DNA from: Candidatus Poribacteria bacterium
GTDB taxonomy: Bacteria > Poribacteria > WGA-4E > WGA-3G
NCBI GenBank assembly: GCA_965205015.1
Contig: OZ242029.1
Location: 2,240,001 to 2,304,000, forward strand
Direction: 5' to 3'
DNA: 64,000 nt
Both the position numbers and the translations under genes were made by a program. The notes under the pieces are model-generated. The model saw only the letters and a list, made by a program, of their open reading frames with translations. It did no database searches and was not told the origin of the DNA. Shown here in pieces: positions 22,088 to 25,823 of this stretch (positions are counted from its first letter, which is position 1; the number at the start of each line of letters is the position of its first letter).

Positions 22088-22663
22088 TTAATTTCGCCCT
22101 TTTTTCGTAATAGCACCTTCAAGATCGGCTTCACGGTAGACGGCTTCAGAGAGGTCAACCTCATATAGATATGCATCTTTGAAATTAGCACCGAGCAAGA
22201 CAACACCTATCAGCTTAATTTCACCGAAAATCGCCTCTCCGAGGTTCGCGTCCTCAAAACTGGTGAGTGAACCGAAAAGTCCCGACACCTCGCATCTTGG
22301 GCAACCGAGGGTAGCGCGACGCAGGTCAGCACGTCGGAAGTTCGTACCACAGAGCAGACTGCCGCTGAGGAACGCACCACATAGATTCGCTGCTTCAAGG
22401 TTGGTATCCGTTAAATTAGAACCGACCAAATACGTCCGATGTAAGGTCGCACCGGAAAGATTCGCACCGGTGAGATTCGCATCGTTCAGGTTCGCATCTG
22501 TTAAATCCGCGTTCCGTAGGTCCGTACCGCTCAAATCCGCTTCCGACAGATCAACACCCACGAGCGGTTGATTCGCTAAATCTAAGTTTGCCAGGTTTTC
22601 ACCAGCAAGAGATTCACCGGCTTGACACTTTTTAATTATTTCATTCTGTGTGAGTTGAGCCAT
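22088..22663 (-). CDS. Pentapeptide repeat protein
   Basis: A(D/N)Lxx repeats throughout; GGAGG RBS. Confidence 0.9.
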   Translation of the reverse strand: MAQLTQNEIIKKCQAGESLAGENLANLDLANQPLVGVDLSEADLSGTDLRNADLTDANLNDANLTGANLSGATLHRTYLVGSNLTDTNLEAANLCGAFLSGSLLCGTNFRRADLRRATLGCPRCEVSGLFGSLTSFEDANLGEAIFGEIKLIGVVLLGANFKDAYLYEVDLSEAVYREADLEGAITKKGRN

Positions 22664-22867
22664 TAATTACCTGCCTCCAGTGTTATACGGCGTTTTTTGG
22701 GGGCTACTTGCAAGCCAATCATGTTATCCAGAAGATATATAAGTTATGTTTAATAGCATACCACATACGCAATTAAAAGTTAAACTTTTTTCCATAATTT
22801 TTGCTGTGTTAGGTAACCCTAAATAACATCTCGTTCGGGAGATCGAGGCTACAGTGAGGTTGAAGAA

Positions 22868-24502
22868 ATGAGAGACTATTACCCGGCATACCCAATAGAA
22901 GCTGAACTTTTTGCAGAGGATGAGGAGAGGGAAGATAACCCCACAGAATCACCAAGGGATGAGACCTTTGCGTACCTACAGAAGATAGCAAAGACCCCTT
23001 TGTTGGAGCCTGAGCAAGAAACTGCACTCTTTAAAAGATACCGAGAAGGTTTCCAGACGTTTACGAACCTGCTAAATCAACTTCCAGATTGGATGATAGT
23101 CTCGCTTAACATTGCTGAAAACAGTACTTCAGACAAAAGCCGAAAATTAGAACCCGCGCAATCAGAACACGGATTAATTATAGACCAGGTCCGCGCCGAA
23201 ATCCAAGCCCTTGGTGTCCTGTTGGAAAAATTAGAAACGAAGGCGAATTTGTTAGAACAGACACGCTGGAAAATCTTTGAAGAAAACTTATATCTCCTCC
23301 AAAAATATGTTGACCCCACTGCATCCCCTGAATTGATGCAGGTTGGAAGCCTCGGACTCTTGAAAGCTATTGACGATAGCGGCACAAAACGGGGTACGGA
23401 ATTTCGGACATACGCTCGCAAAGCGATTCGCAGCAACATCAACACCTTCAACAAAAAGACAACGAAAGTACAACAACGACAAGTTGAGTTCCCTTTAACA
23501 GAAACACATCGGATTCCCGAACTCTCTCGGATCGCAGCGGCATGTTTTGACAAAGAACAGGAGTCTTTGGCTTTTCAGGAATTCGACGTTATCCGCCATG
23601 AGGTTGAAATGCTCTTGGAAAAATTACCTGCCGATATGTTAGGCGGACGGACGACGACCTGCAAGCCGCACACACTCCGGTTTGTACTTGAAGATGTCCG
23701 AAGGGAATTTGCACACGTCAAGTGGTTGGCGGAACAATTGGAAGCGGCGGACCAAGTCACGCACGGAACGAAACTAAAAATTGTTGAAGCGAATCTGCGC
23801 CTCGTCGCCAGTATTGCCAAACAACATCACTTTAGTAAAACATCCTTGACCTTCTTGGATTTGATGCAGGAAGGTAGCCTCGGATTAATGCGAGCCGTAG
23901 ATAAGTTCGACCACACACTGCGATTCCGATTCAGCACTTACGCCACTTGGTGGATTATGCAATCTATCAAACGTGCGCTTGATCAGCAGGGACAGATGAT
24001 CCGTGTGCCATGCTATATCGGTGAAGCGCGTCGCGCCATTAAGCAGGCACAATCGGACCTGACAACCCAGCTCGGACGCGAACCCACTACGACTGAAATT
24101 GCCAAAGAAGTCGAACTTACCGAGAAAAAGGTTTCCGAAATTTTCAACGCCACAAAGGATCCGGTTCCACTTGATGCACCGATCAATGAAGACTCCCCGG
24201 ACGGCGCGTTTTCCGAATTGATTCCAGATCAATCCCAAATTACGCCTGAAAACTATTTGCTCGATTATGCAAAAGTTGAGGTTATCACAGAGGTTCTCAA
24301 CCGAACACTCAATCCGCGGGAGACACAGGTCATCATTCTGAGATACGGCTTAATGGACGGCACCGAGTATACCTTAGCCGACATTGGGGATAAACTTCGG
24401 ATTAGTCGTGAACGGGTCCGACAGATAGAGGCTGAAGCGATTGTGAAGCTCAAACGCCACGACTCAAAGACATTGCTCCGAGATCTGCTGCAAGATTTCT
24501 AA
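22868..24502 (+). CDS. RpoD/SigA-family sigma70 factor with a duplicated region 1.2-2 module
   Basis: YLQKIAKTPLL (r1.2); EANLRLVASIAK, DLMQEGSLGLMRAVDKFD, FSTYATWWI (r2); r3; r4 TLADIG...SRERVRQIE. Confidence 0.92.
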   Translation: MRDYYPAYPIEAELFAEDEEREDNPTESPRDETFAYLQKIAKTPLLEPEQETALFKRYREGFQTFTNLLNQLPDWMIVSLNIAENSTSDKSRKLEPAQSEHGLIIDQVRAEIQALGVLLEKLETKANLLEQTRWKIFEENLYLLQKYVDPTASPELMQVGSLGLLKAIDDSGTKRGTEFRTYARKAIRSNINTFNKKTTKVQQRQVEFPLTETHRIPELSRIAAACFDKEQESLAFQEFDVIRHEVEMLLEKLPADMLGGRTTTCKPHTLRFVLEDVRREFAHVKWLAEQLEAADQVTHGTKLKIVEANLRLVASIAKQHHFSKTSLTFLDLMQEGSLGLMRAVDKFDHTLRFRFSTYATWWIMQSIKRALDQQGQMIRVPCYIGEARRAIKQAQSDLTTQLGREPTTTEIAKEVELTEKKVSEIFNATKDPVPLDAPINEDSPDGAFSELIPDQSQITPENYLLDYAKVEVITEVLNRTLNPRETQVIILRYGLMDGTEYTLADIGDKLRISRERVRQIEAEAIVKLKRHDSKTLLRDLLQDF

Positions 24503-24521
24503 AGAGGATGACTATAATATA

Positions 24522-25823
24522 GTGAAAATCGCGTATTTCGACTGTTTCTCAGGTATTAGCGGCGATATGACGCTTGGTGCCCTCGTTGATGTTGGCGTAC
24601 CCTCCGAAATGCTTAGGGAGAGGTTGTCTACGCTCAAACTCGATGCCGAGTTCAGCCTACGCTTTGAAAAAGCCACGAAACACAACATTACTGGGACCAG
24701 AGCGATTGTGGAGGTGCATCCCGCACACACCTCACACGCAGATTCGCATCATGAGCATGAGCATGCCCATCACCATGCCCATGATCACGGGCATCACCAC
24801 GCTCACGGACCGACGCGTCATCTCTCCGATATTTTCACATTGCTCGATGACAGTGATTTAGATCCAGAAATTCGAAATACCGCGAAACGCGTCTTTGATC
24901 GACTCGCTGCAGCAGAAGCGAAGGTTCACAATATGAACAAAGCCGACGTTCATCTCCACGAGGTGAGTGGGATCGATTCAATTGTGGACATTGTCGGGTC
25001 TGTCATCGGTTTGGCGCATCTCGGTGTTGACGCTGTTCACGCATCACCCCTCTCTCTCGGTAGGGGTTTTGTTCGATGCGCTCACGGATTTATGCCCGTT
25101 CCTGTCCCCGGCACTATGGAACTCCTAAAAGGTGTTCCCGTTCATCAAACCGATATACCGAAGGAACTGGTAACGCCGACGGGAGCGGCGCTCATTACGA
25201 CGTTATCACAGGAATTCGGTGTCATGCCCGAAATGCGATTGGATCGCGTCGGGTACGGGGCGGGGACTCGCGACCTCGAACAACGCCCAAACCTCCTCCG
25301 GCTCTGTCTCGGTGAAAAAACCTCAAGTATCCGTTTACAAACGACCCACCCTCACGCCGAAACTGACAATGTAGACATCATTGAGACCAATGTAGACGAT
25401 ATGTCCCCAGAAATTACGGGATATGTCACCTCTCAACTCTTTGAACACGGCGCGTTTGATGTCTTTCTGACACCGATTTTCATGAAAAAGAACAGACCCG
25501 CGACACAGATAACTGTCCTCTGTCCTACTGCACACCGCGACACACTCATCGAACTCCTTCTCACCGAAACCACAACCTTTGGTGTCAGGCTCTCTTCCGC
25601 CAATCGGGTCAAACTACGGCGCGACTTCATCCAAGTCGAGACGCAATGGGGAACAATTCAAGCGAAACGTGGGTATCTCAACGGTGCCCTTATCAAGACC
25701 GTTCCGGAATATGAGGACTGCAGACGGCTTGCGGAACAAAATAGCGTCCCACTCCGACAGATCTATGCAGAGGCACTCAACAACCTTGAGCCTATTGATA
25801 TCGTAGATCGATCTAAAATCTAA
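24522..25823 (+). CDS. larC: Nickel pincer cofactor biosynthesis protein LarC
   Basis: YFDCFSGISGDM, His-rich tract, HLHEV...DSIVDI, ELVTPTGAA, ETNVDD, MKKNRP, PEYED. Confidence 0.95.
   Translation: MKIAYFDCFSGISGDMTLGALVDVGVPSEMLRERLSTLKLDAEFSLRFEKATKHNITGTRAIVEVHPAHTSHADSHHEHEHAHHHAHDHGHHHAHGPTRHLSDIFTLLDDSDLDPEIRNTAKRVFDRLAAAEAKVHNMNKADVHLHEVSGIDSIVDIVGSVIGLAHLGVDAVHASPLSLGRGFVRCAHGFMPVPVPGTMELLKGVPVHQTDIPKELVTPTGAALITTLSQEFGVMPEMRLDRVGYGAGTRDLEQRPNLLRLCLGEKTSSIRLQTTHPHAETDNVDIIETNVDDMSPEITGYVTSQLFEHGAFDVFLTPIFMKKNRPATQITVLCPTAHRDTLIELLLTETTTFGVRLSSANRVKLRRDFIQVETQWGTIQAKRGYLNGALIKTVPEYEDCRRLAEQNSVPLRQIYAEALNNLEPIDIVDRSKI

Follow-up and report, generated by a model that had tools for sequence, protein, structure and literature searches.

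A lineage-specific Poribacteria sigma factor with an old in-frame duplication of its region 1.2-NCR-region 2 module and a predicted domain-swapped fold

Few bacterial proteins have been studied as thoroughly as the factors of the sigma-70 family, whose sigma-2 domain is treated as a single, indivisible unit for core binding and promoter opening. The gene at 22868-24502 (+) of the window, by which we mean the whole 64,000-nucleotide (nt) stretch of Candidatus Poribacteria DNA analysed here (contig OZ242029.1), raises the question of what becomes of that unit when the module that contains it is present twice in one protein. The gene is a single frame of 544 codons, with its stop codon at 24500-24502 and an ATG preceded by GAGG at 8 nt distance, and it encodes a sigma-70-family protein of 544 amino acids (aa). 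The nearest proteins and loci carry the label Candidatus Poribacteria, a group of bacteria that live with sponges, and a sponge-metagenome-labelled run contains 81% of the sampled words of the window. The answer that we favor, and that we hold to be reasonably probable, is that this protein is a lineage-specific, non-primary, group-2-like sigma factor of Poribacteria, bearing an ancient in-frame duplication of ~176 codons, a swapped fold and a pseudo-lobe resembling the non-conserved region (NCR) of other sigma factors. The comparisons below establish that the module was duplicated, that this took place once within one sigma family, and that the product has been conserved under uneven constraint. 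We write r1.2, r2, r3 and r4 for the sigma regions, and mark the two degenerate halves with a prime; pLDDT is the predicted local distance difference test score of the models described further below. The layout of the gene is as follows.

22868..24502, + strand: whole gene, 544-aa sigma-70-family factor with doubled r1.2-NCR-r2 module
22868..22957, + strand: acidic N-terminal tail, residues 1-30; net charge mean -6.3; predicted disordered, pLDDT ~30-42
22958..23050, + strand: canonical region 1.2 (copy 1), residues 31-61; Pfam r1.2; near-invariant columns in ortholog alignments A1 and A2
23051..23257, + strand: copy-1 NCR-type helices, residues 62-130; includes the long helix 98-139 that enters r2'; predicted cross-over toward the second lobe
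23258..23452, + strand: r2', degenerate region 2.1-2.4 (copy 1), residues 131-195; pLDDT 81-92; net charge +4.7
23453..23539, + strand: linker between the copies, residues 196-224; indels in A1, variable in length and sequence; pLDDT 41-46
23540..23623, + strand: r1.2', degenerate region 1.2 (copy 2), residues 225-252; strongly acidic, charge -6.7
23624..23767, + strand: copy-2 NCR-type helices, residues 253-300; start of the long helix 267-308 that enters region 2.1
23768..23992, + strand: canonical region 2.1-2.4 (copy 2) with WWIMQ, residues 301-375; Pfam r2 305-374; almost invariant
23993..24262, + strand: region 3, one copy, residues 376-465; Pfam r3 386-463
24263..24499, + strand: region 4, one copy, residues 466-544; Pfam r4 480-529

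Membership in the sigma-70 family is clear from a whole-protein Pfam scan, in which regions 2, 3 and 4 all exceed their gathering scores: Sigma70_r2 gives two stretches, the best at residues 305-374 (78.8 bits; cut-off 24), with r3 at 386-463 (68.8 bits; cut-off 25.3), r4 at 480-529 (61 bits; cut-off 24.1) and Sigma70_r1_2 at 35-61 (23 bits; cut-off 22). Sigma70_r1_1, looked for in the whole protein at E<=10, gave no match, and the 30-residue tail is insufficient in length for region 1.1. The original prediction, made from the letters of this DNA, had expected two Sigma70_r2 matches; two stretches do appear on the whole protein, but the N half (residues 1-215), scanned separately, reaches only 22.5 bits for r2 at 150-191 (E 1e-4), slightly below the cut-off of 24, with r1.2 at 24.4 bits, while the C half, scanned likewise, matches r2, r3 and r4. 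Comparison of the two halves with each other is far more telling. In BLASTP of residues 1-215 against 216-544, residues 37-191 pair with 219-367 at 29% identity over 162 columns (E 3e-10), and hhalign, with each copy represented by a profile of 38 orthologs, aligns copy 1 with copy 2 at a probability of 98.7% (E 1.6e-16, 147 columns, 31% identity), confirming the claim that the r1.2-NCR-r2 module is tandemly duplicated. This alignment begins in region 1.2, crosses a helical spacer with a common LP motif and continues until region 2.4 ends, which defines r1.2-NCR-r2 as the repeat unit and 176 codons as its period. Among 81 duplicated-form proteins, pairwise BLASTP recovers the internal repeat in 72 at E<=1e-5 and in 78 at E<=1e-3, with 3 missed.

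The two copies have decayed in a complementary manner, as had been proposed: in copy 1, r1.2 is canonical but the WW dyad is gone, with RKAIRS in its place; in copy 2 it is r1.2 that has degenerated and r2 that is intact, and only one r3 and one r4 follow. The protein motifs quoted at the time, including WWIMQ in copy 2, are all present. A further claim, that the duplication is still visible in the DNA, did not hold up. A direct repeat of 38 nt does exist (23330-23367 vs 23858-23895, 76% identity, spacing 528 nt), but the copies use the same codon at 18 of their 45 identical residues, against 16.3 expected from the codon usage of the sigma gene, their aligned codons have 46% nucleotide identity overall, and the synonymous positions of the 38-nt stretch differ among orthologs in both copies. 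With codon sharing near expectation and synonymous sites variable, the repeat is no relic of the duplication event; it stems from shared residues and common codons, and the duplication itself is old.

What has been kept and lost in each region 2 bears on what each copy could do. In E. coli sigma-70 numbering, copy 2 retains the positions of the 2.2 helix that binds core and the aromatic residues that act at -10, with the family-specific changes Asn409->Ser, Arg436->Met, Thr440->Lys and His455->Tyr (the last in region 3.0). These changes suggest sigma-70-like promoters with altered reading near -12 and at the extended -10. The region 4.2 residues that correspond to sigma-70 584-589 read RERVRQ. 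In r2', the equivalents of Lys418, Phe419, Tyr425, Trp433, Trp434, Gln437 and Thr440 are, in the same numbering, absent, and since aromatic and -12-reading residues are thereby lost, r2' is not expected to bind or melt the -10 element. It does retain the helix pattern, the hydrophobic core, a basic charge (+4.7 vs +4.9 for true r2) and an E-x-x-Q motif in its 2.2-like helix, in which the Gln is invariant and the Glu nearly invariant in alignments A1 and A2; the net charge of r1.2' is -6.7.

Which kind of sigma factor, then, carries this duplication? The highest NCBIfam matches of the 544-aa protein are RpoD models, and it falls below the cut-off of each model considered: 271.3 bits vs 354 for TIGR02393 (RpoD_Cterm), 279 vs 555 for NF004208 (RpoD), 232.2 vs 378.7 for TIGR02394 (RpoS), 270.3 vs 384.5 for TIGR02997 (the cyanobacterial-type RpoD/SigA subfamily) and 244.8 vs 800 for NF041931 (MzaA, the sigma of the anti-phage MZA system), the last with a match confined to the C-terminal part. 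The genome-wide sigma complement was read from related Poribacteria genomes, and three RpoD-like genes per genome were found in 3/3 of them. An RpoD gene of 516-517 aa with WWIRQ scores 356-362 bits and exceeds the RpoD_Cterm cut-off in all three, a group-2-like paralogue of 338-442 aa with WWIKQ is likewise present in 3/3, and the orthologs of the 544-aa sigma in these genomes score 242-249 bits against RpoD_Cterm. The 516-517-aa gene is also the best region 2 match in 5/5 related genomes, and in all five genomes examined whose sigma of this family has a single r1.2-NCR-r2 module (single-module genomes) a separate gene of 572-627 aa exceeds the RpoD cut-off. Because of its sub-cut-off RpoD scores, the separate RpoD gene and the lack of region 1.1, we regard the 544-aa sigma as non-primary and RpoD-like; having regions 1.2-4, no region 1.1 and a separate primary sigma in related genomes, it is group-2-like. 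Its WWIMQ, its IRVPCY at the start of region 3 (family pattern IR[VI]PCY) and its clade position place it in a Poribacteria family that we call the WW[IV]MQ sigmas. The original prediction had singled out WWIMQ in place of WWIRQ; the substitution is real, but it is a trait of the family and not peculiar to this gene, as WW[IV]MQ occurs in 36/36 duplicated rows and 13/14 single-module rows of our tree (the remaining one has WWILQ), with WWIRQ in 3/3 RpoD and WWIKQ in 3/3 group-2-like paralogues. The sigma content of the five related genomes G001-G005 is large, with 17 to 75 Sigma70_r2 matches each, many of them in 900-1280-aa frames that look like sigma domains of the extracytoplasmic function (ECF) type fused to very long extensions.

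The distribution of the doubled module tells how old it is and where it arose. Of 63 related Poribacteria loci, 59 have complete frames of 538-558 aa; the exceptions are L021 and L035, which are cut by contig ends, L022, a low-coverage locus with a broken frame, and L063, a shorter single-module ortholog in which r1.2, a ~100-residue spacer, r2-r4 and WWIMQ are retained. The full N-terminal module (query residues 1-215, E<=1e-38) is present in 108/175 Poribacteria species genomes, in frames mostly of 540-600 aa; 54/175 give weak partial matches only and 13/175 none at E<=1e-5. Ten of ten weak-match genomes examined contain an open frame of 416-538 aa with a WW-type region 2.3-2.4 motif, and the nine that were placed in the r2-r4 tree have WW[IV]MQ and group with the single-module rows. 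Among 1.84 billion representatives searched with residues 1-215, four matches lie below 1e-30 (one duplicated form of 553 aa, another that is truncated, and two fragments), and the subsequent matches are single-module members of the same WW[IV]MQ family. In the r2-r4 tree (56 rows, quick IQ-TREE, L096 left out; 36 duplicated and 14 single-module family rows), the 36 duplicated forms lie on one side of a branch with a support of 99 by the Shimodaira-Hasegawa-like approximate likelihood ratio test (SH-aLRT), and the 50 family rows are split from the RpoD and group-2 paralogues, also at SH-aLRT 99. A tree of the modules themselves, from which three group-2 rows were dropped as their r1.2 was missed by the motif pattern, places both copies within the WW[IV]MQ family and apart from RpoD (SH-aLRT 100); it does not resolve the copies as sisters, its inner branches having 83-84 and being drawn open. 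By BLAST, r2' matches best to region 2 of single-module forms and of its own copy 2 (42-46 bits; RpoD 37), and outside its own protein r1.2' is matched best by r1.2 of single-module P0127. A single intragenic tandem duplication within the WW[IV]MQ family, at the base of one Poribacteria clade, makes the simplest history, and the single-module relatives display the pre-duplication form of the sigma.

The junction at which the module was doubled has been enlarged by other routes as well. Among single-module relatives, some (P0131, L097, L098, L101) reach 506-538 aa by way of long acidic N-terminal tails or of a ~150-residue unrelated insert between r1.2 and r2. The group-2-like paralogue of G001 (L067:1152-1369) has 442 aa as compared with 338-339 aa in G004 and G005; a young in-frame repeat with a unit of 99 nt, present in 2.2 tandem copies with 93% matches, lies between its regions 1.2 and 2.1. 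As this young repeat and the old duplication share the 1.2/2.1 junction, the junction seems prone to tandem expansion in the phylum.

Has the extra part been kept by selection, or merely carried along? We computed the ratio of nonsynonymous to synonymous substitutions (dN/dS) by segment according to Nei-Gojobori in two sets of orthologs: set 1 with 60 rows, of which 734/1770 pairs were used (0.2<dS<1.5), and set 2, a second subclade of 22 rows, of which 66/231 pairs were used. The values are given as set 1, then set 2.

Tail 1-30: 0.22, 0.27
r1.2: 0.040, 0.044
NCR1: 0.21, 0.15
r2': 0.127, 0.186
Linker: 0.51, 0.59
r1.2': 0.123, 0.169
NCR2: 0.16, 0.19
r2: 0.004, 0.009
r3: 0.029, 0.034
r4: 0.046, 0.019

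The same pattern of constraint recurs in both sets. All segments but the linker are under purifying selection and the extra part is not decaying. The outer pair (r1.2 and r2) is constrained as strongly as the core regions; the inner pair (r2' and r1.2') is constrained alike, at a level 3-30 times looser than the canonical halves. Copy 1 is thus neither absent nor neutrally decaying in relatives, since the extra part is conserved, with the module in 108 of the 175 species genomes, and under purifying selection.

The pairing seen in constraint reappears in the predicted fold. We built one AlphaFold2 model of the window protein with 38 orthologs (mean pLDDT 72.2) and a second, built with another set of 32 sequences, of P0123, a 553-aa relative with 53% overall identity (mean pLDDT 72.6); both models display an equal helix pattern in the two copies, at pLDDT 80-94, with a disordered tail and linker. 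Fragments of Thermus aquaticus sigma-A domain 2 (3ugp, 3ugo, 4ki2, 1ku2) superpose on the models over 151-154 residues with a root-mean-square deviation (rmsd) of 3.2-3.9 Å and Z of 13.2-15.6. For 3ugp, 152/179 residues are aligned, with Z of 13.3 and 15.6 and rmsd of 3.6 and 3.2 Å for models 1 and 2, respectively; 3ugo and 4ki2 superpose similarly on both models, as one rigid body, and 1ku2 appears for the P0123 model alone (Z 15.0, rmsd 3.2 Å, 151/240 residues). The aligned range of the models starts at residue 28-30, in the first helix of copy-1 r1.2, and ends at 375-386, at the end of copy-2 r2.4. A modelled arrangement with copy-1 r1.2 seated on copy-2 r2 would account for this start, for the number of aligned residues (41 + 110) and for the low rmsd. 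Foldseek with the whole model returned full-length sigma chains only, at rmsd above 25 Å, and is uninformative on the arrangement.

A two-chain ESMFold2 fold of residues 25-215 against 216-380 scored 0.70, with 0.00 for the best of 3 controls; the 0.70 mark is reached by 116/157 solved complexes and 2/215 mismatched pairs, counts that are approximate here as our own alignment was used. The ESMFold2 runs agree in at least 94% of contacts, with a partner pLDDT of at least 79. Their surest contacts join residues 54-69 (second r1.2 helix) with 287-305 (the long helix into copy-2 r2.1), and residues 242-249 (second r1.2' helix) with 118-129 (the equivalent long helix of copy 1); the two sets are reciprocal, being the same contacts shifted by one repeat. 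In both AlphaFold2 models and in ESMFold2, the insert between r1.2 and r2.1 is predicted to leave r1.2 packed on r2. We therefore consider a swapped, two-lobed arrangement most likely on these models, with lobe I composed of r1.2 and r2 and lobe II of r2' and r1.2'. The original prediction had seen in copy 1 a separate extra sigma-2 domain that may serve as a built-in autoinhibitor or anti-sigma decoy, a proposal that the three predictions and the paired constraints disfavor; because both pair r1.2 with r2 and r1.2' with r2', the "extra domain" becomes the inner pair at the NCR position.

Could the copies nonetheless be two unswapped tandem domains, copy 1 being a self-contained sigma-2-like unit that acts as an autoinhibitor or as a decoy for the beta' clamp helices or an anti-sigma, and copy 2 making use of r1.2'? 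Group 3 and 4 sigma factors do function without a canonical r1.2, the length and flexibility of linker 196-224 would be in keeping with a beads-on-a-string layout, and r2' retains, besides its basic charge, the E-x-x-Q core of its 2.2-like helix with the invariant Gln noted above. We nevertheless judge such an arrangement unlikely, as the two AlphaFold2 models and ESMFold2 seat r1.2 on copy-2 r2 and r1.2' on copy 1, r1.2 evolves 3-4 times slower than r2', its supposed partner, while r2' and r1.2' evolve alike, and, if the outer halves make up a single working domain, just one r1.2 and one r2 would be expected to stay canonical, as is the case. We give still less credence to the idea that the inner part (~residues 70-266) is a functionless relic, tolerated as a spacer at an r1.2/2.1 junction that accepts insertions. 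Its appeal lies in the single-module relatives, which range from 364 to 538 aa and differ mainly at the junction or in the N-terminal tail, in the young 99-nt tandem repeat at the same junction of a paralogue in a related genome, and in the loose linker (dN/dS 0.5-0.6); yet dN/dS stays at 0.12-0.21 in r2', r1.2' and the two NCR parts, well short of 1, none of the lineages represented by the 108 module-bearing genomes shows a deletion of it, frames are intact save for a few contig-end or low-coverage cases, and the helices are predicted at pLDDT 80-94.

That the protein is the housekeeping sigma we regard as very improbable: its top NCBIfam matches are RpoD models and its r1.2-insert-r2-r3-r4 layout is like that of E. 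coli sigma-70, but it lies far under the RpoD cut-offs (279 vs 555 and 271 vs 354 bits), it has a tail of 30 aa in place of region 1.1, and every related genome examined has another RpoD-type gene, of 516-517 aa, or of 572-627 aa in single-module genomes. The chance that the frame is an artefact of assembly or gene calling, through a chimeric contig or the fusion of two adjacent sigma genes, is negligible; nothing spoke in its favor, and the same 538-560-aa frame recurs in many independent assemblies, complete chromosomes included. Recurrence across the related loci and the 108 genomes refutes it. Contigs from four metatranscriptome libraries (three studies) cover most of the sigma gene at 85-97% identity, and one of them, of 800 nt (X17 record 17, 23144-23943), spans the junction of the copies.

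Several points weigh against the swapped, two-lobed reading of this sigma factor and the history that we attach to it: 1) all of its structural support is prediction, and the three predictions may share a bias toward seating a canonical r1.2 on a canonical r2; since packing of r1.2 on r2 occurs in many solved sigma structures, part of their agreement may be memory; 2) the VIA tables list the first and last aligned residue alone, so the AlphaFold2 arrangement was read from starts, count and rmsd; 3) the Gln/Glu pair and basic charge conserved in r2' could mean a coiled-coil or DNA binding of its own, which fits a decoy or second-site role; 4) the dN/dS values are rough, having been averaged over pairs that are not independent of each other and whose dS lies near 1; 5) single-module genomes hold 4 to 7 RpoD-like matches each, for which reason one-to-one orthology with the single-module forms is not strict; and 6) expression is weakly indicated, in that the RNA-library contigs are compatible with expression of relatives, DNA carry-over is possible and neither strand nor transcript ends are given.

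Taking the swapped arrangement as the best explanation, we surmise that the following took place. An in-frame tandem duplication of ~176 codons would have doubled the region 1.2-NCR-region 2 module, after which copy-1 r1.2 and copy-2 r2.1-2.4 would form one working sigma-2, responsible for docking on the beta' clamp helices, for recognizing and melting the -10 element and for touching the discriminator. The two degenerate halves, r2' and r1.2', would then form a second, sigma-2-like pseudo-lobe, occupying the place that the NCR takes in other sigma factors, between 1.2 and 2.1; this pseudo-lobe would be incapable of promoter melting, yet retained by purifying selection. Its putative, NCR-like role may be that of a contact surface for RNA polymerase (the clamp), for upstream DNA or for a regulator. 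A bolder version, which we put forward as tentative and would not expect to hold, is that we see here the birth of a sigma NCR by intragenic duplication and three-dimensional domain swapping, with the pseudo-lobe, which retains the E-x-x-Q face and basic charge of region 2, serving not as a passive spacer but as a second, specific docking module that tunes initiation by this sigma in the duplicated clade. If true, the docking partner would be an RNA polymerase coiled coil, upstream DNA or a lineage-specific regulator, and other large NCRs might likewise be sigma-2 copies decayed beyond recognition.

A whole clade has long kept a doubled sigma-2 under selection, which is out of the ordinary for sigma factors, and by three predictions each of its lobes mixes halves of different repeats. 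The locus thereby offers a concrete and testable route to the origin of the poorly understood NCR, and what would be a natural case of domain swapping following tandem duplication, in a 544-aa sigma that is amenable to expression and study without culturing its host. In the literature covered, outside which lie the subscription journals, we found no account of intragenic sigma-2 duplication or of Poribacteria sigma factors; PMC7671368 concerns gene duplication and not intragenic duplication.

The surroundings of the gene are conserved along with it in the duplicated clade. Three features adjoin it.

22088-22663, - strand: pentapeptide-repeat protein, 191 aa; divergent from the sigma gene; neighbourhood retained in 58/63 loci
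22745..22867, + strand: conserved non-coding block and leader with ribosome-binding site; 17-sequence alignment A3
24522-25823, + strand: LarC-type nickel-insertion protein with His-rich stretch; starts 20 nt past the sigma stop; adjacent in 61/63 loci

The order ABC transporter, pentapeptide-repeat protein (opposite strand), sigma, LarC is retained in 58-61 of the 63 loci and is not retained in single-module genomes. Pentapeptide-repeat proteins can mimic DNA. In 5/5 single-module genomes larC lies away from the sigma gene (megabases off in 4, on a different contig in G034), and we inferred no functional link between larC and sigma, their adjacency being confined to the duplicated clade. Three single-module Poribacteria genomes have a larC match that falls into 2-3 adjacent frames (G059:C1:4762128-4763395, G061:C5:756069-757336, G034:C29:93045-94366), with stops within one piece in G059; a programmed frameshift is known for some larC genes, and the split larC may be such a frameshift or a broken gene.

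Upstream, both the leader and a block ~60-115 nt ahead of the sigma gene remain conserved in orthologs with as little as 58% protein identity; the block may serve the sigma gene, or the divergent pentapeptide-repeat gene, as promoter or operator. A conserved 13-mer of the upstream region has 3 sites in the window at <=2 mismatches (0.7 expected; 4/100 shuffles reach 3), and we read no regulon from it because the other two sites are not ahead of + strand genes; a second upstream motif stayed at chance level. Rfam found nothing relevant in 22500-24700, its one match (E 0.71) being to an unrelated lncRNA model, and in 22600-24700 consensus promoters and terminators were no more frequent than chance would give (2 vs 2.9 and 2 vs 2.4, respectively).

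Among known systems, E. coli sigma-70 is alike in its order of r1.2, large helical insert, r2.1-2.4, r3 and r4, and the modelled insert of the 544-aa protein exits and re-enters sigma-2 at the NCR position; its chain 7xya_F aligns from r1.2 to r2.4 with Z 14.2 and rmsd 6.7 Å over 231/302 residues. Unlike E. coli sigma-70, the 544-aa protein is non-primary and without region 1.1, and its insert would itself be made of decayed sigma-2 parts (r2' and r1.2'). The best single-domain structural match is Thermus aquaticus sigma-A domain 2 on -10 DNA (3ugp, 3ugo, 4ki2; also 1ku2); Thermus sigma-A joins r1.2 and r2 by a short NCR, whereas the 544-aa protein has ~200 residues with a predicted second lobe between them. 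With the group 2 sigmas (RpoS, mycobacterial SigB and cyanobacterial group 2) it has in common regions 1.2-4, no region 1.1, nearness to RpoD and a separate primary sigma, but it lies below the RpoS and cyanobacterial-type cut-offs, belongs to a family of its own (WW[IV]MQ, IR[VI]PCY) and has a doubled sigma-2 module.

An internal repeat of sigma domains is also seen in P0129, a 447-aa protein named Candidatus Acetothermia sigma-70 family protein, in which region 4, region 1.2 and region 2 occur in this order twice, with no region 3 match. P0129 resembles the 544-aa protein in having two stretches each of r1.2 and r2, and has two of r4 as well, but it differs in sigma group, repeat unit and lineage, and is not a case of r1.2-NCR-r2 repeated in an RpoD-like sigma. 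The closest relatives are the single-module WW[IV]MQ sigmas (L063, L092-L101, P0127, P0131, P0132, P0135), which have the family signatures in common with it, are 50-75% identical in r2-r4 and stand nearest on the tree, and which differ in having one r1.2-NCR-r2 module, one Pfam r2 stretch and 364-538 aa. The NCR between 1.2 and 2.1 is known to vary among sigma factors, and sigma-70-family factors with a lineage-specific insert at the 1.2/2.1 junction are already known; what appears to be new is an insert that is a decayed sigma-2 copy from an intragenic duplication, probably domain-swapped and kept across a large clade.

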